NCBI GenBank assembly: GCA_041649715.1
Contig: JBAZMP010000003.1
Coordinates: forward strand, 100,894-164,893
Length of the DNA stretch: 64,000 bases
Source: Patescibacteria group bacterium
Lineage (GTDB): Bacteria > Patescibacteriota > Patescibacteriia > JAXHNJ01
Direction of reading: 5' to 3'
The notes under the pieces were generated by a model that worked only from the letters and a program-made list of their open reading frames with translations, made no database searches and was not told the origin of the DNA. The stretch's first letter is position 1; the number at the start of each line of letters is the position of its first letter. Below, one piece after another: positions 4,726 through 28,249 of the stretch. A program made the position numbers and the translations under genes.

Positions 4726-5439
4726 ATGGCCAGAGAACAAGGCTTATCTCATAACCCGGAAGAGGAAAAAATACTCTCGCTCCTCGCGGAGAAGAAAAAT
4801 TTAGACAATCGCGAAATCAGCAATCTCGCTTTTCAGGAAATCGTTCTGTCCAAATTAACCGGTCAATTCGGCCAGGAAATGCTGAAGGCCGGCATAAAAC
4901 CGGAATGTGTCGAACAAATCACGGTGAATATATTAGCGATTCAAGACAAAAAAATCGTCAGCCAGATGCTGGCGCTACCCGCTAAAATGCGCGAAAGTCG
5001 GTTTGTTACTTACGCCCAGAGCGGCAAAAGCGCCCAAGAGATCCTAAAGGATATGACGATCCTGATCGAACAGACTACAAACGCTTTGGGTGGCGCACCG
5101 GTACTTGGTTTTCACACCAGCCGGACAAAAATATCGCCGCATGAACGATACAATCCCGCGACAAGCACTAACGAAAGACTCTGGGTAGTTAGCGGGACGG
5201 AACATACCGATTACGCGGAAACTCCCCAGGCTTATGCCGCCCGGGACTATGAGCATCTCTATCGCAAAAAGGGAGATCCCGCCTACATTTACTTGGTCAG
5301 AGATAACGAAAAAAACGAAATTGACCCGACCACTGGCTGGTCGAGGGCTTCAAGCTTTGATGTAATCGCGGAGTTGAAAACGGCCGAAGTCGACCAGGAG
5401 ATAGAAAATATCGTTAGTCGCTTAAGAACCGTTGCCTAA
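4726..5439 (+). CDS. Hypothetical protein
   Basis: 237-aa ORF with a promoter-like element upstream. No recognisable motifs. Confidence 0.5.
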   Translation: MAREQGLSHNPEEEKILSLLAEKKNLDNREISNLAFQEIVLSKLTGQFGQEMLKAGIKPECVEQITVNILAIQDKKIVSQMLALPAKMRESRFVTYAQSGKSAQEILKDMTILIEQTTNALGGAPVLGFHTSRTKISPHERYNPATSTNERLWVVSGTEHTDYAETPQAYAARDYEHLYRKKGDPAYIYLVRDNEKNEIDPTTGWSRASSFDVIAELKTAEVDQEIENIVSRLRTVA

Positions 5440-5787: not shown

Positions 5788-5938
5788 TGAACATCACCTC
5801 CCTTAAAGAAACAGTAAAAAAACTACACTATCTTTCTACTCAAGCAAGTGTGTAACTTATCACACATTGCACTTTTTGTCAAGTAGAAACAAAAAAGCCC
5901 TTATTTTGGAAAAGGACTTTTTTGCATTATTTTCGCTT

Positions 5939-12520: not shown

Positions 12521-12928
12521 CTAAGCGGTTGGTGACGGCTTACTGATGTCTTTCTTCTTTACGCCGACAAGCATCGAACCGACCGCCTGAGCGATAAATA
12601 ACAGATAGGCAACCCAGCTGGCCAGAAAGATGCCCTGCGTGCCGTTCACTAAGAGCATCACCACCATGAACACGGTCGTCATGCCTGACCATAACAGACC
12701 GGCGATAACCGCTTGTTTCCGGCTAACCGGTTTAAGCCACCGACCAAAGGCATAGGAAATAATAATCAAGAAACCGACGACGATGGCCATGCCCAAGGGA
12801 GGCGGGGCGGTCATTTCGGCCCCCTCTTTAACCCCGTAGATAAGAGAAATAATAAAGATGGCGATCATCAATAAGAACCATTGCAATAGGCCGAAGGCAA
12901 AAATTTTAATGATAAATATTTTGTTCAT
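12521..12928 (-). CDS. Hypothetical small membrane protein
   Basis: 135 aa with about 4 TM helices. Confidence 0.45.
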   Translation of the reverse strand: MNKIFIIKIFAFGLLQWFLLMIAIFIISLIYGVKEGAEMTAPPPLGMAIVVGFLIIISYAFGRWLKPVSRKQAVIAGLLWSGMTTVFMVVMLLVNGTQGIFLASWVAYLLFIAQAVGSMLVGVKKKDISKPSPTA

Positions 12929-12974
12929 ATATAAAGGATAGTTTTTGCTCAGGTGGCGTTGCCAACGTTTTAGT

Positions 12975-13049
12975 TGGCAGGGGCGCCTGGATTCGAACCA
13001 GGAATAATGCTTTTGGAGAGCATTGTGATAGCCATTTCACTACACCCCC
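12975..13049 (-). tRNA. tRNA-Trp (anticodon CCA), CCA encoded
   Basis: Minus-strand cloverleaf GGGGGTGTAGTG..ATGCT-CTCCAAA-AGCAT..GGTTCGAATCC..CGCCCCTGCCA. Anticodon loop CUCCAAA. Confidence 0.8.
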
Positions 13050-13354
13050 AGATAATAGATACGGATTATTTCAATTCCTTATGCCCCGTATGCTTACGGC
13101 ACCATCGGCAGTGTTTTTTTAGCTGCAGTTTTTCTTTAACGGTCTTTTTGTTCCTTTTGGAATAATAATTGACGTGTTTGCACACCGTGCATTGGAGTTT
13201 GACGAGATTGTCCTGGGACATGAATTTAAGTTGATTTAAGTTGATTAGTTTATTGAGTTAATTAAGATCATTTTTGACTTGATAAATAGTTGAAATATTT
13301 ATTTAAGCCGACTAGTAATCCTTCATATTCTCGGTCAATTTCTGCAAACGCCTT

Positions 13355-13427
13355 AGCCCACGGTCAGATTCGAACTGACGACCTACTGTTTACAAAACAG
13401 TTGCTCTACCAGCTGAGCTACGTGGGC
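13355..13427 (-). tRNA. tRNA-Thr (anticodon UGU), no encoded CCA
   Basis: GCCCACGTAGCTCAGCTGGTAGAGCAACTGTTTTGTAAACAGTAGGTCGTCAGTTCGAATCTGACCGTGGGCT. Anticodon loop UUUGUAA. Confidence 0.8.
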
Positions 13428-13536
13428 TCGGGCTAAGGCGGGCGGGTCTACCAACTGTCACCCAGAGGGTGATCCGCCTCTGGCGGAAGCTACGTCGGCC
13501 TGTCAGATTTAAGAAAAACGTAATATCCATCCCCAG

Positions 13537-13623
13537 TGGTGGGCAGGGTAGGATTCGAACCTACGAAGCCCGGAGGGCAGCAGATTTACAGTCTGCCCCA
13601 TTTGACCACTTTGGTACCTGCCC
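13537..13623 (-). tRNA. tRNA-Tyr (anticodon GUA), class II long variable arm, CCA encoded
   Basis: GGGCAGG..GCAGA-CTGTAAA-TCTGC-TGCCCTCCGGGC..GTAGGTTCGAATCCTAC-CCTGCCCACCA. Confidence 0.8.
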
Positions 13624-13668
13624 ACCACTGGGGACGAAAAATATTTATTAATTAAACAACATTGGATT

Positions 13669-13697
13669 CGCCGTGTACCAGTAAACGGTACACGGCG
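13669..13697. other. Perfect 11-bp/7-nt-loop hairpin (cgccgtgtacc-agtaaac-ggtacacggcg) between tRNA-Tyr and its partial copy
   Basis: Perfect palindrome with no adjacent U-run. A processing or stability element rather than a canonical terminator. Confidence 0.4.
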
Positions 13698-13722
13698 ACG
13701 TGATCCCTCCAGTGGTTCACGT

Positions 13723-13795
13723 CGAACCTACGAAGCCCGGAGGGCAGCAGATTTACAGTCTGCCCCATTTGACCACTTTGGTACCTGCCCACTAT
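13723..13795 (-). pseudogene. Partial duplicate of tRNA-Tyr (5' end through variable arm; T-arm and 3' acceptor strand replaced)
   Basis: 13723-13791 is identical to 13555-13623 of the intact tRNA-Tyr. The downstream part ('gtgatccctccagtggttcacgt') cannot form a T-arm or acceptor stem. Confidence 0.65.
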
Positions 13796-13889
13796 TGTTT
13801 TCAATAATTGTTTTTAAGTAACTTTTTGAATGCCTTCCCGCCTTTATTAGAATATATACATTATACATTACACATAATACATAATTGAT

Positions 13890-14170
13890 ACAGATTTATG
13901 CCGCCTTTGTCGGCACCCCGGCCGCGGGCGGTGGCAGTCTGTCCATTTACCTGTCCGCCTCGGTTGGAACCGCGGAGCCTGCCCCGAGCTAAGTCAAGGG
14001 GGTACCTGCCCCTAGATTGTCAAAAAGGATGAAGCCCAAAAGCGGATTTGTTACCCTACGGGTGATCTCCCGAAGGGAGATACCGATGATCCTTCGTTTA
14101 CCCTCAGGACAAGCTCTACTCCTTACCCCTCCTTCGCCTACGGCTTCGGAGGGCAGACATGTAGTTGTAA
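13890..14170 (-). other. G+C-rich unassigned, probably structured RNA-like element inside the tRNA cluster
   Basis: About 280 bp of locally high G+C with many short helices (gatctcccgaagggagatc, cggcttcgg, cctgccccgag/cctgcccctag) between two minus-strand tRNAs and co-oriented with them. No convincing ORF. RNase P RNA, tmRNA and SRP RNA signatures are not recognisable by eye. Confidence 0.3.
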
Positions 14171-14183
14171 TTTGTCTGCGGCC

Positions 14184-14259
14184 TGGAGCCGATGGTCGGA
14201 TTTGAACCGACGACCTACTCCTTACCATGGAGTTGCTCTACCAACTGAGCTACATCGGC
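14184..14259 (-). tRNA. tRNA-Thr (anticodon GGU), CCA encoded
   Basis: GCCGATGTAGCTCAGTTGGTAGAGCAACTCCATGGTAAGGAGTAGGTCGTCGGTTCAAATCCGACCATCGGCTCCA. Anticodon loop AUGGUAA. Confidence 0.8.
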
Positions 14260-14290
14260 ATCCCCAGGCCGCAGACAAATTTAAATTTAT

Positions 14291-19864: not shown

Positions 19865-20011
19865 GGGGAGTTAAAATCAAAAATAAAACCTTTTCATTTT
19901 CAACCCCCAAATACGAAAAGGAGTGTAAATTTGGGGAAAAAGTCGTGTTGTTTGACAACCGAATACACTGTTTATCTTATCCCGACACCTCAAGAAAGGA
20001 GTAGGGAGAAT

Positions 20012-20302
20012 GTGAAGACGAAAACACGGGATGCGCCGATCAAAGTCCGGGTCGGGGCCGTGGAACAAAAGGGCGAGCACGGGGTGCCGTTCCTGGTTAC
20101 CTGGCCAACGAGCCCGACTTTGAAAGATTTAGGCAGTATCACGATCGAGCAGACAGCCGAGACCCTGCTAGGTGAACCCCCCTGTACGGGTGGCGAATAC
20201 CTAGTGGCTTTTGGTGTCTACCAGAAGGAAAAGGGTTGGCGTGCTCAAAAAGCCCGCCGATTCCGTCCGGATGATTTCAGAAATCCTGACATCATCCAGT
20301 AA
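20012..20302 (+). CDS. Hypothetical small protein (first gene of GC-rich island)
   Basis: GTG start preceded by 'aaggag' about 10 nt upstream. About 96 aa (VKTKTRDAPIKVRVGAVEQKGEHGVPFLVTW..). G+C-rich. Confidence 0.45.
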   Translation: MKTKTRDAPIKVRVGAVEQKGEHGVPFLVTWPTSPTLKDLGSITIEQTAETLLGEPPCTGGEYLVAFGVYQKEKGWRAQKARRFRPDDFRNPDIIQ

Positions 20303-20356
20303 AAGCATCGAGCATGTAGAACATGAGCATGTAGCACTCAGAAAGGATCGGCTACA

Positions 20357-21067
20357 ATGGCCAAGAAATCAATAAGGGGTTTGTTTGTCAAGACTGACGG
20401 ACAAGCTCCCAGACCCGGGTCCCCTTCCGGAAGTGCTTGGGCTCCGCCGGCTGGAACAGGTTTTGTCCCCGGCTCAGCTCCCAAGTCATATCTGGATACC
20501 GGCCCCCGGCGCGGTCAATCAAGCGGGAACGCGACCGCGGTAACTTCTACCGCCGTCGACACGCAGTTTACGGCCGAGATCGAGGAACAGCTCCGGACCG
20601 TGCCGACTCCCAAGGGTTTCGACATGTTCCTGGGCGCCCTCGAAAACTTGACCCAGTTCATCCCCGACGAAGGAAACCGCTTCAAGGCGGCGATGGTAAC
20701 GGCGGCCGCCAGCGGGCTGACGCCGGCACAAATCGTCGAGGCCCTGGAAGCGCAGCTGGCAGCCCTGGAAAAAATCCTGGCGACCTTCCAGAGCGATCTG
20801 GAAACGGAAGCCAACGAGTCGATCGCCGAACGCGAGTCGCAGCTAAAAACGCTGGCGACCCAGATCGGCGACCTCCAGCGGCAGCTGGCCGACATACAGA
20901 GAGAAATGCAGAAACTCTCTGACGATCAGAGAAGACTACAGGATGAAAACGCCCAGGTCGAGCAGCGTAAAAGCTTGGTAACCAACCGTTACTCAAGCGC
21001 GCACGCGGCCAAACTGGGCAAAACCCAAGAGCTGCTTTCAAAGGTACAGCGGTACCTCGGGCAGTAG
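20357..21067 (+). CDS. Hypothetical protein: Pro/Gly/Ser-rich disordered N-terminus plus helical/coiled-coil C-terminal half
   Basis: 236 aa. RBS 'aggatcgg' upstream. The C-terminal half has heptad-like text (LEAQLAALEKILATFQSDLE..LQRQLADIQREMQKLSDDQRRLQDENAQVEQ). Confidence 0.55.
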   Translation: MAKKSIRGLFVKTDGQAPRPGSPSGSAWAPPAGTGFVPGSAPKSYLDTGPRRGQSSGNATAVTSTAVDTQFTAEIEEQLRTVPTPKGFDMFLGALENLTQFIPDEGNRFKAAMVTAAASGLTPAQIVEALEAQLAALEKILATFQSDLETEANESIAERESQLKTLATQIGDLQRQLADIQREMQKLSDDQRRLQDENAQVEQRKSLVTNRYSSAHAAKLGKTQELLSKVQRYLGQ

Positions 21068-21081
21068 GAAAGAGGAACGAA

Positions 21082-22185
21082 ATGGTAGAGACACCCTCTT
21101 TGCCGCAGCTCAAGGGCTTCGGCAATGACATGCTTTCAAGCAAGGAGAAGACAATCGGAGCGATTGTCACTATCCTGCTGATTGGCGCCGCGCTGCTCGG
21201 GCTTAATGCCCTTCTTCCCGGCATCAATCATTTTCTCTCGGGTCTGCTGGCCGCGGTCGGCAAGCTCGTGATGCTTGCCATCTCCCTGGCCGGCCTAGCC
21301 TTGTTCCTGGCCGTCGCCATGAACAAGCGGACCCACACGCTTCTCAAGCTGGGGTTCTACTGGCTGGCGCGCAAGACCACGATGGCCTTCGTCAGGTACG
21401 GCCCGACCACCATCATTGAGATCTACAACGATCACCTGACCGCAAAAGCTCAGAAGTTCGGCGAGAAAAAGATGGTCGTGGATTCCAAGCGGGAGGTCGT
21501 GGCGCGCACCATTGAAGAGAACCAGGCTTCGATCAACGAGAGCCAGGCGAACGCCAAAACTCTCAAATCCCGGCACTTCGACGACAAACAGAGAAGGTGG
21601 GATTCGATCGAACACAAGAATCTCTTCATGGAGTACAGCTCGAACATCAGCTTCCGCGAGGCCTCCAACGTGAATCTGCGCAAGCAGCTTATCAGGCTGG
21701 AATACTATCTCCAGATCCTGGAGAAGTTCCAGCAGGCGTTCAATCACCGCCGTAACGTGATCAAGAACTTCTGCAAGATCCTAAACACGGAGTACGAAGC
21801 CATGAAGGCGGCCGCGGAGGGAACTCACGAACTCTCGGCGCTCTTCGGCACCGACGACCTAAAGCAGGTCTTCGACATGACCATCGACTTCATGAGAGAG
21901 CGGATCGCTTTCTTCACGAGCGAGGTCGACACCTTTATGAGCGAGAACCTGCCGGTCGTCACCGAGCTCGACCTGCAGAACGAAGTGGCGGAAGACCAGC
22001 TTCTCGCCAGACTGACGGACATGGACAAGAAAGCCGATCACCTGATCGACCAGGCCGCCCAAGATGAGGTGGCCCTGACCGATATCCGGGGATTGGCAAC
22101 GTTGGTCAAGTCCAACCAGGCAACCGCGGCCACCCAAACGACGCCCTCTTCAACAAGAAGGCATCGCTACCTGGGCGGAAACTAA
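21082..22185 (+). CDS. Hypothetical membrane protein (2-3 N-terminal TM helices, long cytoplasmic helical domain)
   Basis: 367 aa. TM segments IGAIVTILLIGAALLGL / LSGLLAAVGKLVMLAISLAGLALFLAV. The remainder is predicted helical. Starts 15 bp after the previous stop, so it is probably co-transcribed. Confidence 0.55.
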   Translation: MVETPSLPQLKGFGNDMLSSKEKTIGAIVTILLIGAALLGLNALLPGINHFLSGLLAAVGKLVMLAISLAGLALFLAVAMNKRTHTLLKLGFYWLARKTTMAFVRYGPTTIIEIYNDHLTAKAQKFGEKKMVVDSKREVVARTIEENQASINESQANAKTLKSRHFDDKQRRWDSIEHKNLFMEYSSNISFREASNVNLRKQLIRLEYYLQILEKFQQAFNHRRNVIKNFCKILNTEYEAMKAAAEGTHELSALFGTDDLKQVFDMTIDFMRERIAFFTSEVDTFMSENLPVVTELDLQNEVAEDQLLARLTDMDKKADHLIDQAAQDEVALTDIRGLATLVKSNQATAATQTTPSSTRRHRYLGGN

Positions 22186-22238
22186 TAAGTCTCTCATTTT
22201 CCCAATTCTCAACCAGAAAAGTCAGTAAAGGAGTAGTC

Positions 22239-23717
22239 ATGAAAAACCTTACTCTTCTCTCGAAGGTCCTGATCGGAGTCGTGATCCTCGCAATCGTCGG
22301 TTCCCTCCTGTGGTTCAGCGGCATCCTCAACAAGGAGCGGCCGCTGCGGGTCAGCGTGGTCACCTGGGGTGGCTATGCCGGGGGACAGCTTTGGAACGAA
22401 GGTTTCAAAGCCAGCGAGGAAAGCCGCTTCCTTAAGGAATACGGCGTTCCCGTCGAGTTCGTCCTGAACGATGATATCGAAAGCAGCTTGAAGGCTTGGG
22501 AAGCCGGCGAAGTTGACGCTCACTGGTGGACCGCCGACGTATTTTCGACGGTCGCTGATGAGCTAGCCGCTTACAATCCCAAGGTCTTCATGCAGGCTGA
22601 CTGGTCCAGAGGCGGCGACGCCATCGTGGTCGTTCGCGGCATCAATTCCGTGAACGATCTGCGAGGCCGGAAAATCGCCGTCGCTTTCAAGACCCCCAGT
22701 CACAGCTTTCTGCTTTGGGCCCTTGAATCCGCGGGCATGACCCCGAACGACGTCCAGATCGTGGAAGTCGCTTCCGCCATCGACGCGGCGGCGGCATTCA
22801 AAGCTGGACAAGTCGATGCGGCTGTTGTTTGGGCACCGGATGATCAAGGCTGTGTCGATGCGGTACCCGGCTCAACAATCTTGGCCAACACCAAGGATGC
22901 CAAGTACATCATCAGCGACGTCTTCTTCGCGAAAGAAGAAGTCCTCGTCGCCCGCCATGACGATTTTGTTTCCCTGGCGGAAGGCTGGCTCAAAGGCAGC
23001 GCGTTGATCAACACCGATCCGACGGCCAAGAACAGAGCGGCTGAAATCCTCTCAACTGGATTGAGCGTATCGGTAGATTACGCTCTCGGAGCCATCAACA
23101 ATGTTCGCCTCACCACTCTGGGAGACAACATCAACTTCTTCAACATCAATGGCAACTACCAGGGCGTCAAGGGCGAAGACATTTATACCAAGACGGGAAG
23201 AATGTACCAAAAGTACGGCATCATCAAGGGAAGCTTTCCGGATTGGCGCTCTGTCGTCGATCTTTCAATCGTGAAGGAAGTCATCGAAAGAGGCAAGCTG
23301 ACGGGCAATATGAACGCGGCTGAAGCGGCCACGACCTTCGAGCGGCCGACCGAAAAGATGGCCTCCGCCCCGGCCATGGCGACCAAACGCGTGACGATCA
23401 ACTTCGCCACCAACGTTTACGCCTTGGACGAAAACGCCATGCGCATCCTTGACCTGCAAGCGGCTGACGCTCTGCGGTTCATGGGCGGCGTACGCGTCCG
23501 TATCACTGGCAACACCGATAATGTCGGCGATTACCAGATGAACATGAACCTGTCCCAGAAGCGGGCCGAAGCGGTCGCCGATTACCTGGCGAGAACCTAC
23601 AAGTTCGACCGCAACCGGTTCGTCATCGTGGGCAAGGGTCCGGACAATCCGGTCGCCTCAAATGAGACGCCGGACGGCCGGGCAAAGAACCGTCGCACGG
23701 ATATCGAACTCTTCTAG
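22239..23717 (+). CDS. Membrane-anchored NMT1/SsuA-type ABC substrate-binding protein fused to a C-terminal OmpA-like domain
   Basis: N-terminal anchor (LLSKVLIGVVILAIVGSLLWF). Central domain resembles nitrate/sulfonate/taurine-type binding proteins. The C-terminus carries an OmpA-C-like segment (NTDNVGDYQMNMNLSQKRAEAVADYL..GKGPDNPVASNETPDGRAKNRRTDIELF). Confidence 0.6.
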   Translation: MKNLTLLSKVLIGVVILAIVGSLLWFSGILNKERPLRVSVVTWGGYAGGQLWNEGFKASEESRFLKEYGVPVEFVLNDDIESSLKAWEAGEVDAHWWTADVFSTVADELAAYNPKVFMQADWSRGGDAIVVVRGINSVNDLRGRKIAVAFKTPSHSFLLWALESAGMTPNDVQIVEVASAIDAAAAFKAGQVDAAVVWAPDDQGCVDAVPGSTILANTKDAKYIISDVFFAKEEVLVARHDDFVSLAEGWLKGSALINTDPTAKNRAAEILSTGLSVSVDYALGAINNVRLTTLGDNINFFNINGNYQGVKGEDIYTKTGRMYQKYGIIKGSFPDWRSVVDLSIVKEVIERGKLTGNMNAAEAATTFERPTEKMASAPAMATKRVTINFATNVYALDENAMRILDLQAADALRFMGGVRVRITGNTDNVGDYQMNMNLSQKRAEAVADYLARTYKFDRNRFVIVGKGPDNPVASNETPDGRAKNRRTDIELF

Positions 23718-23814
23718 GGCCACGGCCTGAAAGATAGTTTGGTATCATACCGCCAAAGGGGCGGGAGTCAACTGATTCCCGCCCCTCTCATCAACCTCCT
23801 GGGAAGGAGAACGA

Positions 23815-24612
23815 ATGCATAACAATGGAGACCTGTTTTGCCTCCGAGGCAAACTGCCGCCGAAAACTCGAATGGTAATCGAGCTCGCCGGCCTGGTCAT
23901 CATTCTCCTTGTCTGGTGGGCGGTCGTCGCGACTGGTCTGGTCAAGCCGAAAATGCTGCCTTCACCGATTTCCGTCGTTACCTGCTTCGGTGAACTGGTG
24001 AAGCAAAATCACTTGGTCGGAAACCTGCTCTTCTCGTTGATGCTCAACATCCTGGGGTATATTGAGGCCATCCTGATCGCTGTACCGCTTGGTTTTCTGA
24101 TCGGCCTCCAGCCTATCCCGCGAGCCCTGAGTGAAAGATACATCACCGCCGGACGGTTCCTGCCGCTTTCGGCCGTGGTCGGTCTGTTCATTATGTGGTT
24201 CGGGATGTACACCAACATGAAAGTGCAGTTTCTGAGCTTAGGCATCGTTGTCTATCTCCTGCCGATGGTCATCCAGAGAGTCGACGAGGTCGATCAGATC
24301 TATTTCGACACCGTCAAGACTCTGGGCGCCAGCAAATGGCAGGCCGTGACGAGCGTTTTTATCCCGGGTGCGCTCTCCAAGATCTCTGACGACATCCGGG
24401 TCATCGTCGCCATAAGTTGGACCTATATCATCATCGCTGAGGTGGTGAACAGGACCCAAGGCGGCATCGGAGCGCTGTGTTACGGCGTCAGTCGCGCTAG
24501 CCGTCCGGACAAAGTATTCGCCATTTTGGCTATAATCATCCTGATCGGGATCGTCCAGGACAAATTCTTTCTTTTCCTGGACAAGAAACTCCTCAAGCAC
24601 AAGTACGTCTGA
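23815..24612 (+). CDS. ABC transporter permease (NitT/TauT family, SsuC/TauC-like)
   Basis: Six TM helices. Region resembling the EAA loop (..LGASKWQAVTSVFIPGALSKISDDIRV..). RBS 'ggaaggag' upstream. Confidence 0.7.
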   Translation: MHNNGDLFCLRGKLPPKTRMVIELAGLVIILLVWWAVVATGLVKPKMLPSPISVVTCFGELVKQNHLVGNLLFSLMLNILGYIEAILIAVPLGFLIGLQPIPRALSERYITAGRFLPLSAVVGLFIMWFGMYTNMKVQFLSLGIVVYLLPMVIQRVDEVDQIYFDTVKTLGASKWQAVTSVFIPGALSKISDDIRVIVAISWTYIIIAEVVNRTQGGIGALCYGVSRASRPDKVFAILAIIILIGIVQDKFFLFLDKKLLKHKYV

Positions 24613-24630
24613 ACAAAGGAGGTTTGAAAG

Positions 24631-25446
24631 ATGCCGACGCTACTCCCAGTCGTCTTCGAAAATACAAACCTCCCGGACGTCATCGAGCTGCGCAACATTT
24701 GCCAGACGTACGACGGAGGAAAGGCTTGGGTCTTACAGTATGTCAACCTCCTGATCGAGGACATCCCCGACCAGGGACAGTTCGTGGTCATACTCGGACC
24801 CTCAGGCTGCGGCAAATCAACGCTTCTGAAATATATTGCCGGCCTGCAAAAACCGACCAGTGGGGAAGTGCTGATCAGCGGAAAGGTCCGTACCGATGAC
24901 GTCGTCGTCGGCATGGTCTTCCAGCAGTACTCCTCCCTGCCCTGGTTCACGGTACTTGAGAACGTCATGCTGGGGCTAAGGTTTCAGAACGTGCCGGAGA
25001 AGGAAGCCCGGGAAAAAGCGATGCAAATGCTCGAAGTCGTCGGACTGGCCTGCGAGGCGAACAAATTCGCCAAAAGCACCCAGCTTTCCGGCGGCCAGAT
25101 GCAGCGCGTCGCCATCGCCCGCAGCTTGATCTCCAACCCCGGCATTATCCTGATGGACGAGCCGTTCGGCGCCCTGGACATCAACACCAGGCACCAGATG
25201 CAGCTCCTCCTCTGCGATATCTGGGAAAAGCTGCAGTCAACCATCATCTTCGTCACCCATGATATCAACGAAGCCGTGTTCCTGGCTGACGATATCTATG
25301 TGATGACGAAGAACCCCGGTTACATCTGCAAGCACTGGATAATTGACCTGCCCAAGCATCGTGACCGGTCAACCAAGCGTGACCCGCGGTTCATCGAACT
25401 CGCCAACGAGATCGATGATTACATGCAGAACTTACGCATCAAATAG
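24631..25446 (+). CDS. ABC transporter ATP-binding protein (NitT/TauT family)
   Basis: Walker A GPSGCGKST, signature LSGGQMQRVAIARSL, Walker B ILMDEPFGALD, H-loop VTHD. Confidence 0.85.
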   Translation: MPTLLPVVFENTNLPDVIELRNICQTYDGGKAWVLQYVNLLIEDIPDQGQFVVILGPSGCGKSTLLKYIAGLQKPTSGEVLISGKVRTDDVVVGMVFQQYSSLPWFTVLENVMLGLRFQNVPEKEAREKAMQMLEVVGLACEANKFAKSTQLSGGQMQRVAIARSLISNPGIILMDEPFGALDINTRHQMQLLLCDIWEKLQSTIIFVTHDINEAVFLADDIYVMTKNPGYICKHWIIDLPKHRDRSTKRDPRFIELANEIDDYMQNLRIK

Positions 25447-25468
25447 CTCATTTTTCATTCGCACATAA

Positions 25469-25500
25469 GGCTGACCCCTCAAAAGGTCAGCCTTTTTCTT
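25469..25500 (+). terminator. Rho-independent terminator after the ABC ATPase gene
   Basis: Stem ggctgacc/ggtcagcc followed by 'tttttctttt'. Confidence 0.6.
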
Positions 25501-25521
25501 TTGCCCAAATTCCTAAAATCC

Positions 25522-25550
25522 TTGACAAATAAATAATTTCGTGCTAATAT
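25522..25550 (+). promoter_or_regulatory. Strong sigma-70-like promoter TTGACA-17-TGcTAATAT for the AAA+ ATPase gene
   Basis: 'cttgacaaat'..'gtgctaatatg'. Same architecture as 19836-19864 and 33648-33676. Confidence 0.5.
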
Positions 25551-25623
25551 GTTGGGTTAATTTGCACCTTGTAATTTTGATATTTTTCACAGAGGCATTG
25601 AAAAAAAGAAAGGCAGGCACAGA

Positions 25624-27480
25624 GTGAAAGATGGTATAAAAAAGCAGCCGTTATCGCACGGAGAAGACGATTTTGAAAGCAGCGGTATTCCCGGTCTCGA
25701 CGACGCGGTCAAATCACTGGATAACATTCCCAAAATCCTGGGCCGCAGACGAGAAATGACGCGGAAAACGGAAGGTCATCTTCGCAAAGAAATGGCCGAA
25801 ACCGGCGAAACAGAGGAAAATCCTCTTCAGCCGGCCCTGGTTCGCGCCATGATCACCGCGGGCAAGCTCGCCCGTCATCTCGAGTCACAGCGGGAAAAAC
25901 CCGGCTATTACGGCGTGGTTTTTTCCCGACTGGCAGCAATGACCGATCCGGAAAAGTTCGATTACGGCAAGATTCAGCCGGGCACCAAGGTCAAAATCCT
26001 CACCAACGAAAACCAGCCGGAATTAATGGGGCAAGTGGGCTACACAGCCAACGAACCCGATTCGGACGGTCTTGTCATGGTGCTTTTCGATGAAGGCGAA
26101 TTCGGCCATTTCCTGGCTGTGCCGCCGGACGAAAAGCAACCGAGGGAGATCGAAATTGTCCCCGGCCAAGACCGAGTCATCGTCCTTTTCGAAGGACGCT
26201 TCATCGAGCTGGCTTCTCCGGAAGGAATGACCCTTTCCAGCGGCCAGGTGGTCAAGCTGGATCTGAAAACCAACCAGATCCTGGATATCGTCAGCCTAGA
26301 ACTGCCGGGCGAGATCGCCACGGTAAAATGTATCTTGGGCGGCCGCGTCCAAATCGACTTCCACGGTACCGATAAAATCGTGGCGGCCGGCGACCTGACC
26401 AAGACCTTAGAGCCCGGCAATCAGGTGATCTTAGACTCAACCAACCAGCTGATCACTGGCAACCTCGGCGACATGGATGTTTCCTACCGCTACAACCGCC
26501 CGCCGGCCATCACCTGGGATGATATCGGCGGACAGACCGCAGCCAAAGCCATACTCCAAGAGATGATTGAGGCGCGCTTCGATCATCCGGCCGCTTTTGA
26601 AAGGTTTCACAAGAAACCCCCCAAGGGCCTGCTTCTGCTCGGCCCCACCGGCTGCGGCAAGACGATGTTGGCCGAAGCCATGGCCTATTCGCTTTCGAAG
26701 CGCTTCGGTGAAACCGCCATGCGTTCCGGCTTTTTCCTGGTCAAGGGACCGGAGATTCTGCGCTCGCTCGTCGGCGAACAGGAAGCTATCATGCGCCACA
26801 TCTTCGTCCTGGCAGACAAGCACTTCGCCAAATTCGGCTTCCCCGCCATCATCTTCATCGATGAATGCGAAGGCATCTTGAAAAAGCGGGGCACGGGCAC
26901 CAGCGGCGACTACTTCGAAACGCTGGTGCAAACCTTCTTGGCCCTGATGAACGACACCAAGGCCATCGTCGTACTGGCGACAAATAGGCCGGATATGCTC
27001 GACCCGGCGGTGGTCCGCCACAAGCGCATCGACCGCAAGATTCCGGTTCGTCGTCCGGATCGGCCGGCCTCCGAGGAAATCTTCAGAATCTATCTGAAAG
27101 ATCTCCCTCTCTCCGAGGGCTTGACCGGCGAGACACTGGCCAAACTGGTGACAACCGAGCTTTTCTCGGACTGCTACGGCATGTACAAACTCATTGTCCA
27201 GACCGAAAACGGAACAGAAGAGAAAATCTTTGGCCTAGCGCAGGTCATCAACGGCGCCATGATCGCCGGGATAGTAGATGAGGCCACCTCGGCCGCCGTC
27301 AACCGGCAGATCAAAGACGGTAAGGAAACCAGTCTGACCGCAGATGACCTAAAAGAAGCCCTGAGCAGAGTCTATCAGGGCGAACTCCTGACCGATCACA
27401 CCGAAGACCAGAAAGAATTCGGGGAAAACCTGACCGGCAAGGTCCTGGAAGCCCACAAGCTCTTTGTGGGCCGCAAATAG
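25624..27480 (+). CDS. ARC/Mpa-family (proteasome-associated-ATPase-like) AAA+ unfoldase; no C-terminal GQYL-type proteasome-docking tail
   Basis: Predicted GTG start. N-terminal short helix, then a beta-rich inter-domain region, then an AAA module: ITWDDIGG, Walker A LLLGPTGCGKT, Walker B IIFIDECEG. ARC/Mpa-like stretches (FFLVKGPEILRSLVGEQE.., KKRGTGTSGDYFETLVQTFL, ATNRPDMLDPAVVRHKRIDRKIPVRRPD) are matched against the ARC/Mpa family from memory. The protein ends ..LFVGRK. Confidence 0.75.
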   Translation: MKDGIKKQPLSHGEDDFESSGIPGLDDAVKSLDNIPKILGRRREMTRKTEGHLRKEMAETGETEENPLQPALVRAMITAGKLARHLESQREKPGYYGVVFSRLAAMTDPEKFDYGKIQPGTKVKILTNENQPELMGQVGYTANEPDSDGLVMVLFDEGEFGHFLAVPPDEKQPREIEIVPGQDRVIVLFEGRFIELASPEGMTLSSGQVVKLDLKTNQILDIVSLELPGEIATVKCILGGRVQIDFHGTDKIVAAGDLTKTLEPGNQVILDSTNQLITGNLGDMDVSYRYNRPPAITWDDIGGQTAAKAILQEMIEARFDHPAAFERFHKKPPKGLLLLGPTGCGKTMLAEAMAYSLSKRFGETAMRSGFFLVKGPEILRSLVGEQEAIMRHIFVLADKHFAKFGFPAIIFIDECEGILKKRGTGTSGDYFETLVQTFLALMNDTKAIVVLATNRPDMLDPAVVRHKRIDRKIPVRRPDRPASEEIFRIYLKDLPLSEGLTGETLAKLVTTELFSDCYGMYKLIVQTENGTEEKIFGLAQVINGAMIAGIVDEATSAAVNRQIKDGKETSLTADDLKEALSRVYQGELLTDHTEDQKEFGENLTGKVLEAHKLFVGRK

Positions 27481-27503
27481 CCTTTGAACCTTATAACAAC
27501 ATT

Positions 27504-27537
27504 ACACTCCGGGAGAAATCTCGGAGTGTTTTTTTAT
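27504..27537 (+). terminator. Rho-independent terminator after the AAA+ ATPase gene (downstream boundary of the GC-rich island)
   Basis: acactccg-(10 nt)-cggagtgt followed by 'ttttttt'. Confidence 0.6.
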
Positions 27538-27550
27538 ATTGCAATATTTT

Positions 27551-28249
27551 TTAATATGTTGGCGCTATGGGTAAAACATAGTCATCTTCATGTATCAGAT
27601 GCATGTTTTCAGTAATATAGGAATAATCAGAATCTTCATATTTTACATCAATTAAAAATCGACATAAATAATATCCAAATAAAACCTCGTCATTGCCCAT
27701 TGACTCGCAGTTGGCAATCTTAACTCCTTTTCTATCGTAATAATTAATACCGCCATCAAGGCAACCGATATAGGGAAACATACTAAATGGAGCATCGCAT
27801 ATTTCCGCATATATCCGGCCGTATCTTTTAGTATTCCAGGAAACGATTGGCCAATTGTCATAGTGCTCTCTATTAATGATGTTATTAATAACTGTCATAT
27901 CTACCCTGTCATTTTCGGGATTCTTTAAGGGTTTTTGGGTGAAAAGAAAAGGCGTGCCATATAATATTAAAATCGAAATAATTATAAGTATAAGGGCTGA
28001 TAAAACATTCTTTCTATTAATTAGTGAGATAAGACAGGCAAAAATATATAATGCGATTGCATAGATGCTATAAAATAAAAATAATATGTCAACGGTAATG
28101 CTAGATTCAAGATATTGAAATAGCGAAACGTATATATTTACCTCAAAAAAATCAAAAAAGAATAAATACTCAATAACGGTGACAACGATTAATCCCAAAA
28201 GGATTAATATCTTCTTTTTGGTCGGTTTTAAGTGTTTTAAAAATCGCAT
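27551..28249 (-). CDS. Hypothetical membrane protein in a very AT-rich segment
   Basis: 232 aa. Three N-terminal TM helices and a Cys-containing extracytoplasmic domain. The segment is noticeably more A+T-rich than its neighbours. Confidence 0.45.
   Translation of the reverse strand: MRFLKHLKPTKKKILILLGLIVVTVIEYLFFFDFFEVNIYVSLFQYLESSITVDILFLFYSIYAIALYIFACLISLINRKNVLSALILIIISILILYGTPFLFTQKPLKNPENDRVDMTVINNIINREHYDNWPIVSWNTKRYGRIYAEICDAPFSMFPYIGCLDGGINYYDRKGVKIANCESMGNDEVLFGYYLCRFLIDVKYEDSDYSYITENMHLIHEDDYVLPIAPTY

Follow-up and report, generated by a model that had tools for sequence, protein, structure and literature searches.

Long duplexes formed from both sides of a structured RNA are known from bacterial rRNA operons, whose leader-trailer stems are cut by RNase III and are conserved with covariation across bacteria. 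Archaeal split and multi-intron tRNA genes (Nanoarchaeum, Thermoproteales) have GC-rich complementary flanks and bulge-helix-bulge (BHB) motifs, and integrative islands target tRNA genes via a tyrosine integrase, with a 3' segment duplicated as a direct repeat and the target thereby restored. Homing-endonuclease genes of organelles, such as those of fungal mitochondrial atp6 and cox, bring a duplicate of the host-gene end that they displace, and SegB of phage T4 is a full-length protein of about 220 amino acids (aa) with DNA-binding domains. The present analysis concerns a Thr-Tyr-Thr-Trp tRNA cluster in a 64,000-nucleotide (nt) stretch of a Patescibacteria genome (contig JBAZMP010000003.1, hereafter the window), in which tRNA genes stand between complementary leader and trailer sequences, here called arms. 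With a probability of about 0.55, the arms are the inverted-repeat borders of replacement tRNA cassettes lying in or beside broken older copies of the same tRNA, and not a conserved processing signal.

In bacterial precursor tRNAs, pairing of the leader with the 3' RCCA extends the acceptor stem and acts as an RNase P anti-determinant; the study describing this randomised leader positions -6 to -1 only and considers pairing of N(-2)N(-1) (Zhu et al. 2022; PMC9433436). SegB is a free-standing GIY-YIG homing endonuclease of the T4 tRNA cluster, which cuts in a tRNA gene region, drives its own transmission and promotes amplification of segments of that region (PMC2330249; PMC13096335). Perfect stems are documented to arise, and to be extended, through template switching in a single step (PMC8794818), and group I introns are found in Patescibacteria tRNA genes at position 35/36 (PMC13011429).

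The four window tRNAs were called with ARAGORN and the Rfam RF00005 covariance model (gathering threshold 29 bits). All lie on the minus strand, have a complete cloverleaf and score ~62-74 bits (74.2, 73.4, 62.3 and 61.9). Leader-trailer pairing was tested by folding with the cloverleaf or acceptor stem enforced and by comparing duplex energies with those of 2000 shuffled leaders. The leader of tRNA-Thr(GGU) is 100% complementary over 18 nt to a trailer that includes the encoded CCA. Its minimum free energy (MFE) structure consists of the normal cloverleaf and 19 leader-trailer pairs past a 4x1 internal loop, with the leader UGG paired to the encoded CCA beyond this small loop. The whole-sequence folding z-score is -9.0, and none of the 2000 shuffled leaders reached the duplex energy of -36.2 kcal/mol. 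In tRNA-Tyr, CCCCAGUGGU pairs with ACCACUGGGG as an unbroken continuation of the acceptor stem, forming 15 leader-trailer base pairs (bp), or 22 bp when the 7-bp acceptor stem is counted. The leader UGGU pairs with ACCA contiguously with the acceptor stem, and again no shuffled leader was as low as the native duplex (-27.6 kcal/mol; 0/2000). Neither helix is affected by enforcing the acceptor stem. The window helices are real and, for Thr(GGU) and Tyr, far beyond chance, and both reach the roughly two turns of leader-trailer duplex expected of an RNase III-type stem. For these two genes the initial annotation had described 12 bp plus UGG:CCA pairing and 10 bp, respectively.

That annotation had reported leaders complementary to trailers in three of the four tRNAs, of which only two are strong. 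For the third, tRNA-Thr(UGU), sequence complementarity exists, but the helix is weak and competes with the tRNA fold. In place of the 8-11 bp proposed for it there is an 11-nt leader complement, 4 nt of which are the 3' acceptor strand itself. With the acceptor stem enforced, a core of 7 bp (CGCCUUA/UAAGGCG) is left beside a 6-nt bulge, with 14 leader-trailer pairs in all when distal ones are counted. The duplex energy is not above chance, being reached by 269 of 2000 shuffled leaders, and the unconstrained MFE structure (-45.5, compared with -42.6 under constraint) breaks the acceptor stem. A conserved 6-mer, GCCYGA, separates the arm from the tRNA 5' end in Thr cassettes with differing anticodons and from different genomes (window 13428-13433; L088 1613-1618 and 2347-2352; L117 ~4921-4926, as CCCGA; L119 ~5874-5879; L numbers denote compared loci). 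For tRNA-Trp, a leader-trailer helix was looked for by folding and none was found, only a downstream hairpin. Its 3' end GCCAAC (discriminator, CCA and two more nt) pairs with GTTGGC 6 nt downstream (window 12950-12989), so that here the 3' end has its inverted copy on the opposite side of the gene.

Relatives retain synteny from rpsB to the TPR-protein gene together with the tRNA cluster, so that ~25 distinct related clusters with ~56 cluster tRNAs could be gathered for comparison. Leader-trailer duplex energies are bimodal across these tRNAs, 17 of which lie at or below -20 kcal/mol. Which tRNA bears the helix changes between genomes: L004 has none on its Thr, Tyr and Thr genes and a 17-bp one on Trp, and helices are missing from orthologous tRNAs in L091, L095, L101, L103 and L105. 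Arm sequences are unrelated between lineages, their lengths and offsets are too variable for in-register alignment, and no conserved, covarying pairing was found at orthologous genes. A helix was absent from all 11 control tRNAs (eight from other phyla; His, Arg and Arg from outside the cluster in L096).

This distribution bears on the possibility that the arms are selected precursor-processing stems, similar to those flanking 16S and 23S rRNA, which would offer a duplex to RNase III or a BHB-type endonuclease in cells with a reduced RNase P/RNase E repertoire. The great stability of the 19-bp and 15-bp helices (22 bp continuous with the Tyr acceptor stem), the pairing of the encoded CCA by the leader, and a few pair-preserving differences among related arms are in its favour. 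Leader-RCCA pairing also inhibits E. coli RNase P, so that another enzyme would be needed (PMC9433436), and the RNase P RNAs of the Candidate Phyla Radiation (CPR) are divergent, some being without the CCA-binding UGG (PMC8172020). However, many orthologues in relatives and the tRNAs outside the cluster are without helices, which argues against a general RNase III or BHB maturation mode. The lack of arm homology between lineages, the strong tie to nested fragments and to hairpin/nuclease elements, and perfect Watson-Crick repeats typical of recent DNA-level events also speak against this explanation, which is considered distinctly unlikely.

When nine cassettes were folded within their native context by partition function, the result was divided. 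The arms raise the predicted probability of the acceptor stem to ~1 in six of the nine, including window Thr(GGU) and Tyr, as would suit processing stems. In the other three, all of them Thr(UGU) and including that of the window, the arms lower it to 0.02-0.04 and thus abolish the predicted acceptor stem. Thr(UGU)-type leaders duplicate acceptor nucleotides and carry an extra 6-mer (GCCYGA or GCTGCT). The idea that arms insulate the inner tRNA from outer fragments was likewise left with a mixed outcome (help in 6/9, harm in 3/9), and the outer context had no consistent effect. A BHB substrate was sought in the window cassettes and rejected, as the 4x1 internal loop of Thr(GGU), the uninterrupted helix of Tyr and the one-sided 6-nt bulge of Thr(UGU) do not give the 3-nt/4-bp/3-nt geometry. 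In the L096 and L088 arms, where a 4-bp CGCC/GGCG helix lies next to a 3-nt bulge, just one bulge fits. Nor was an intron or ribozyme supported: the inserts are just 31-52 nt long, there was no Rfam match between 12800 and 14400 at E<=1, and the hammerhead-like appearance of CTGAGGGTAAACGAA found no support. The RNase III or BHB processing mode proposed in the initial annotation is thus not supported, given patchy orthologues, helix-free controls, the lack of BHB geometry, lineage-specific arms and the acceptor stems predicted to be lost. The complementarity is confined to these loci and tied to local duplication, which the proposal does not survive. Given the inhibition of RNase P by leader-RCCA pairing and the divergence of CPR RNase P RNAs, release of a tRNA from a 15-19 bp helix probably requires a cut in the duplex or active unwinding.

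Pieces of the same tRNA are found directly outside the arms in 12 of 17 helix-flanked tRNAs, compared with 11 of 39 helix-less ones (odds ratio 6.1, p=0.007). The break in these outer copies falls within the D, anticodon or T loop, and nests have up to three layers. At L096 5977-6209, a near-complete outer Thr(GGU) with three stem- or loop-damaging substitutions has a D-loop that holds the arms with an intact Thr(GGU) and an anticodon loop that holds a 43-nt hairpin. L088 2207-2599 contains three nested Thr(UGU) layers: a middle allele of sound structure (GCCGAGG..CCA) carries an intact inner allele (GCCAACG.., no CCA) in its D-arm and itself sits in the anticodon loop of a decayed third copy. 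Thr(GGU), Thr(UGU) and Tyr are all nested in L007, where 'empty' and 'filled' Thr(GGU) hairpins have identical outer flanks. In the window, Thr(UGU) is a GCCCACG allele preceded by the 5' piece of a GCCGACG-type allele ending ..GGTAGA, and the same junction of ..GGTAGA with the arm is present in L088 and L119. A truncated Tyr and an older Tyr 5' part both lie upstream of the intact window Tyr, and the hairpin CGTGA..TCACG that follows the truncated copy contains a copy of the Tyr 3' end and trailer, ACCACTGGAGGGAT. The decayed outer Thr(GGU) of the window contains a T-loop insert, CTTGYCCTGAGKGTAAACGAAGG (14090-14112), that is conserved in L102 (5110-5133). The TPR proteins of the two loci are only 38% identical, and such conservation is unexpected for junk; the insert may have spread horizontally or be functional.

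The same material could be explained without any mobile cassette, through frequent tandem duplication, unequal recombination and decay, with the arms arising as neutral template-switch palindromes at the inverted repeat of the acceptor stem. The pseudo-Tyr and decayed Thr(GGU) unit of the window stand in tandem with intact genes, the leader is an exact inverted copy of the 3' end and trailer, and template switching is known to produce perfect stems (PMC8794818). In the same direction point a 66-nt repeat unit in the Thr(UGU) nest that distinguishes L096 from L097, two assemblies with 100% identity elsewhere, and L003, where recombination of two Thr genes appears to have left a deletion. L096 and L097 further differ by a 35-nt AT-rich palindromic hairpin directly after the Tyr CCA (L096 6857-6891); such indels between strains also count in favour of the cassette reading. 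Tandem duplication does not, however, lead to an intact tRNA that sits within the D-loop or anticodon loop of a second one, as in L096 and L088. In L088 and the window the inner allele is distinct from the outer, arm termini are common to different cargo tRNAs and genomes, and the hairpin module and GIY-YIG gene described below recur at the same tRNA positions in several phyla. This account is considered unlikely. The L003 locus itself (13040-13195) is a chimeric Thr with a 5' acceptor strand of UGU type (GCCCACC) and a 3' strand of GGU type (CATCGGC); it fits a recombination deletion between two Thr genes, is uncalled by ARAGORN and lies in a cluster without Tyr.

Assembly artefacts at repeated tRNA sequence in metagenomes would also produce nested fragments and arms, and the region is indeed repeat-rich, and at L117 5441-5477 a run of N, from a scaffold gap or masking, falls within the Tyr/GIY-YIG repeats. 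Against this, the same architecture is present in independent ENA, JGI, NCBI and Logan assemblies of different lineages, the repeats (<=76 nt) fall short of the final k-mer that the contig name (k141) implies, and the window sequence is reproduced by L001 and L002. An artefact is therefore barely credible.

The tRNA clusters also harbour a nuclease gene. Intact genes for an 80-aa GIY-YIG protein (Pfam E=1.4e-17) are found in the clusters of seven lineages (L007, L094, L095, L096, L102, L112 and L117). The gene lies upstream of an intact Tyr or Trp at a distance of 0-13 nt in L095, L096 and the L117 region and ~21 nt in L102; it overlaps the tRNA in L094 and is ~85 and ~180 nt away in L007 and L112. 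A 5' tRNA piece precedes the open reading frame (ORF) in four of six cases examined and in L117. In L007, L096 and L117 this piece spans positions 1-35/36 and is 100% identical; in L112 it covers positions 1-20, and in L095 it is a diverged half. No convincing piece was found upstream in L094 and L102. L128, like L007, L096 and L117, has a duplicated 5' half that matches the intact copy at 100% identity. A conserved GC-rich two-hairpin module sits upstream, at ACTG/../TAAA (slashes mark junctions), wherever the junction was read. The window has the module at the Tyr anticodon loop together with partial tRNA duplicates, and a GIY-YIG gene remnant lies between its Tyr copies (Table 1). The same element architecture, with an anticodon- or T-loop break, also occurs in Moranbacteria (Tyr), Endomicrobiales (Ser(GGA)) and Ignavibacteriaceae (Ser(GCU)). 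A search of viral contigs for the two-hairpin module gave no match. GIY-YIG genes of 80-92 aa also lie within a few nt of a tRNA in L124, L125-L127, L128 and L130, with a half-tRNA duplicate on the far side. A Tyr-associated GIY-YIG gene is present in another member of the Patescibacteria besides Moranbacteria, and an identical protein (P0137) occurs at two genomic places, L122 and L124.

Module and cassettes are linked by their ends. Anticodon-loop cassettes occupy the exact site of the module, and their termini, CCTGCCCGCC..GGCAGGCGGG/TAAA, resemble its first hairpin. The termini CCTGCCCGCC..GGCAGGCGGG and YCCCGCC..GGCGGGR+TRAA recur around different cargo tRNAs in different genomes, and shared terminal inverted repeats are present in L088, L096, L007, L094, L102 and L104. 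Such common termini, and the existence of cargo-less hairpins with similar ends, would also suit arms that are the terminal inverted repeats of a transposon resembling a miniature inverted-repeat transposable element, with tRNA cargo and a transposase encoded elsewhere. However, every target is the cognate tRNA gene, an indication of a homology-dependent process, and there is no target-site duplication at the clean L096 and L088 junctions and no transposase gene nearby. Dispersed copies of the window arms are also lacking, as six extra matches in the window have 2-3 mismatches, form no hairpins and lie in ordinary sequence. A transposon of this type is thus very improbable. Arms or CCGCC hairpins as genome-wide dispersed repeats were likewise not supported.

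Table 1. Features of the tRNA cluster, in window coordinates (slashes mark junctions)
Feature	Position	Strand	Basis or remark
Intact tRNA-Thr(GGU), CCA encoded	14184..14259	-	ARAGORN; 73.4 bits
5' arm (leader) of Thr(GGU) cassette, AAUUUGUCUGCGGCCUGG	14264..14281	-	18-nt inverted repeat; 19 pairs folded
3' arm (trailer) of Thr(GGU) cassette, overlaps encoded CCA	14169..14186	-	inverted repeat; folding
Decayed older Thr(GGU) material, following intact Thr(GGU)	14030..14159	-	repeat analysis, sequence reading
Diverged second copy of leader arm and tRNA start, in decayed Thr(GGU)	14159-14141	-	repeat analysis
GGTAAGGAGTAG in decayed Thr(GGU)	14127-14116	-	repeat analysis
T-loop insert CTTGTCCTGAGGGTAAACGAAGG and small hairpins in decayed Thr(GGU)	within 14030..14159	-	same insert in L102
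3' end CAAATCCGCTTTTGGGCTTCA of decayed Thr(GGU)	14050-14030	-	repeat analysis
Older tRNA-Tyr 5' part, GGGGCAGGTACC ... AAATGGACAGACTG, ~52-nt D-loop insertion	13935..14012	-	repeats; homologous to L007, L117
Two-hairpin module CCACCGCC..GGGGTGCCGACAAAGGCGGCA in Tyr anticodon loop (ACTG/../TAAATCTG)	13899..13934	-	same junction, 8 lineages
GIY-YIG gene remnant, start ATGTATTATGTG.., end ..KGGKAFKKLLKNNY and stop, ~165 nt deleted internally	13801..13882	-	alignment to L117
Truncated tRNA-Tyr, positions 1-69, ~97% identical to intact gene, T-loop break	13722..13790	-	direct repeat; 22.2 bits (sub-threshold)
Two hairpins after T-loop break: CGTGA..TCACG; TCGCCGTGTACC..GGTACACGGCGA	13664..13721	-	inverted repeat, sequence reading
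5' arm (leader) of tRNA-Tyr, ..CGUCCCCAGUGGU	13624..13638	-	folding
Intact tRNA-Tyr(GUA), CCA encoded	13537..13623	-	ARAGORN; 62.3 bits
3' arm (trailer) of tRNA-Tyr, ACCACUGGGGAUGG, begins at discriminator	13526..13540	-	folding
Older Thr tRNA 5' piece, different allele, GCCGACGTAGCT .. AGTTGGTAGA	13447..13499	-	direct repeats
31-nt two-hairpin insertion within older Thr 5' piece	13487-13457	-	in the piece above
5' arm region of Thr(UGU) cassette, CCCGCC CGCCUUA GCCCGA	13428..13446	-	inverted repeat; homologous arms in L088, L117, L119
Intact tRNA-Thr(UGU), no CCA encoded	13355..13427	-	Rfam 74.2 bits
3' arm of Thr(UGU), UAAGGCG, begins at discriminator	13349..13355	-	inverted repeat; folding
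tRNA-Trp, armless, internal negative case	12975..13049	-	ARAGORN; folding

The reading favoured here is that a cassette consists of a complete working tRNA gene between two complementary arms, placed in or beside a fragmented older copy of the same tRNA. The Thr-Tyr-Thr-Trp cluster would have been colonised by small elements made up of an 80-aa GIY-YIG gene and the GC-rich two-hairpin module, which would interrupt the D, anticodon or T loop of tRNA genes, a full or partial tRNA duplicate making good the damage. In the proposed sequence, a resident tRNA gene suffers a break or insertion, a replacement copy is installed that is sometimes clearly another allele, and the old halves decay. The stem around the new copy would then grow inward, with the 3' end and trailer serving as template for inverted copying (template switching). 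Such copying would account for a leader that is the exact reverse complement of N73-CCA and trailer, and its one-step nature for arms that are perfectly Watson-Crick paired even where they harm the fold; exact and partly fold-harming complementarity fits DNA-level templating over RNA-level design. Pairing of the arms in RNA would thus be a consequence of how the cassette arose. In the transcript, the paired arms are expected to prolong the acceptor stem by 15-19 bp, and a double-strand cut or unwinding would be followed by RNase P and 3' trimming. Insertion driven by the nuclease, template switching and all steps of RNA processing are events that we infer from the arrangement of the loci. The alternative suggestion of the initial annotation, that the stems are structured remnants of insertion events, comes close to this comparative picture of nesting, fragments and hairpin/nuclease elements.

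A bolder version of the cassette reading, which is possible but tentative, is that these loci represent an undescribed class of selfish elements that invade tRNA genes, bring their own tRNA in compensation and, over repeated rounds, leave tRNA genes nested like Russian dolls. The class would have two forms. An autonomous form would combine the 80-aa GIY-YIG gene, the two-hairpin module and a half-tRNA duplicate (Patescibacteria, Endomicrobiales, Ignavibacteriaceae). In a non-autonomous form, a complete tRNA would be held in the loop of a hairpin, with the arms as the stem of the element itself; these arms would be needed for a double-strand RNA cut that frees the inner tRNA from its composite transcript.

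Several observations weigh against replacement cassettes as the origin of the arms. No clear outer remnant accompanies 5 of the 17 helix-flanked tRNAs (L117 Thr(GGU), L009 and L112 Thr(UGU), and, with weak traces only, L004 and L102 Trp), and window Thr(GGU) resembles a tandem arrangement more than a clean nest. Window Thr(GGU) and Tyr, which have the strongest helices, are without the shared CCGCC-type termini. The arms raise the acceptor-stem probability in six of nine cassettes. Some arm differences preserve pairing: the Thr(GGU) arms of L007 and L094 are distinguished by a single compensatory pair, a wobble change and a pair that is broken, and window Tyr and the L007 outer Tyr arms show several pair-preserving differences. 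These differences could reflect selection on RNA. The window has no intact nuclease ORF (PF01541), the 80-aa protein consists of a catalytic domain only, and site-specific cleavage by it is putative. The link between arms and nuclease is one of co-occurrence only, and tRNAs directly after the GIY-YIG gene are usually armless. No mobility or insertion event was directly observed among the compared loci.

The setting of the cluster was read over the window plus its 10-kb flanks. Genes follow one another as rpsB, tsf, one with a PSP1 domain, the TPR-protein gene, the tRNAs, rpmG, tRNA-Trp, a 135-aa ORF and a DEAD-box helicase gene. The contig, of metagenomic origin, is 235 kb long, and its S2 protein carries a Patescibacteria name. 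The nearest other S2 protein is only 67% identical to that of the window, and a profile search of genome contigs with a PSP1 alignment gave mostly Firmicutes among the matches listed, with L007 and L009 being useful. No further tRNAs were found in the 10 kb flanking the window on each side. An Rfam scan found no RNase P RNA in the 64-kb window, which does not address genome content, and a promoter and terminator scan gave nothing exceeding shuffles. The 135-aa ORF (12521-12928, minus strand), just after rpmG and tRNA-Trp, has no Pfam match, and an ORF of the same length lies at the same position in L128 (1571-1978). Positions 20000-28000 of the window have 51-57% G+C, compared with ~45% in the rest. 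An integrase-mediated island was also considered for the window and rejected, as its neighbours are the TPR protein and L33 and the duplicates are 5' parts or nested copies. At L108 2626-3349, Thr(GGU) is cut in the anticodon loop (..CCATGGTAA/caaac) by an element that appears by eye to encode a tyrosine-recombinase-like protein, and this would be a classical integrase insertion in the same cluster.

If the cassette reading is true, essential single-copy tRNA genes in tiny CPR genomes are repeatedly overwritten by small self-compensating elements, which would provide a route for horizontal replacement of tRNA alleles. It would account for tRNA finders missing or mis-calling genes in these genomes, and supply an annotation signature in the combination of two-hairpin module, tRNA halves and arms. 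It would also mean that a natural tRNA matures from an acceptor helix extended by 15-19 bp, a structure known to block E. coli RNase P, and would give a testable role to a GIY-YIG protein of 80 aa with a catalytic domain only.

The literature searched contains no description of complete tRNA genes nested in their own copies behind hairpin arms, nor of a small GIY-YIG and two-hairpin element in bacterial tRNA genes, and a recent survey of Patescibacteria tRNA introns mentions neither. Precedents exist for each ingredient; the nested combination is not met in the literature searched. As in precursor tRNAs with leader-RCCA pairing, the leader pairs with the discriminator and CCA, the acceptor stem is lengthened and RNase P must unwind it. 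However, that pairing involves a few nt, whereas the helices here are perfect over 15-19 bp, extend into the trailer, are patchy and are tied to nested fragments. The rRNA operon stems are likewise long duplexes drawn from both sides of a structured RNA, but the tRNA helices are lineage-specific and absent from most tRNAs. Template-switch hairpins share the one-step perfect complementarity and the extension of an existing inverted repeat, here the acceptor or hairpin stem; in contrast to those cases, the process is one that we infer here, and no ancestral/derived pair was recovered (PMC8794818).

Comparison with known invaders of tRNA genes is similarly divided. SegB also is a GIY-YIG gene among tRNA genes, but it stands between them, whereas the putative nuclease here is an 80-aa catalytic domain encoded inside a tRNA gene, together with a module and a compensating duplicate. 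With tRNA islands these loci share a tRNA gene as target, function kept by tRNA sequence that is brought in, and a fragment left behind; they differ in that a whole tRNA with inverted arms (~100-130 nt in total) or a 5' half is involved and no integrase is present. Nuclease genes of organelles likewise compensate for disruption with a replacement of the displaced part, but those hit protein-coding genes of the organelle, without hairpin arms or nested complete genes. Finally, archaeal split tRNAs resemble the present loci in the GC-rich complements that bracket tRNA parts and in interruptions of the D-, anticodon- and T-loops. The loci described here differ from them in lacking BHB motifs, in their bacterial host, and in having outer copies that are pseudogenes with stem-breaking substitutions around an inner tRNA that is complete.

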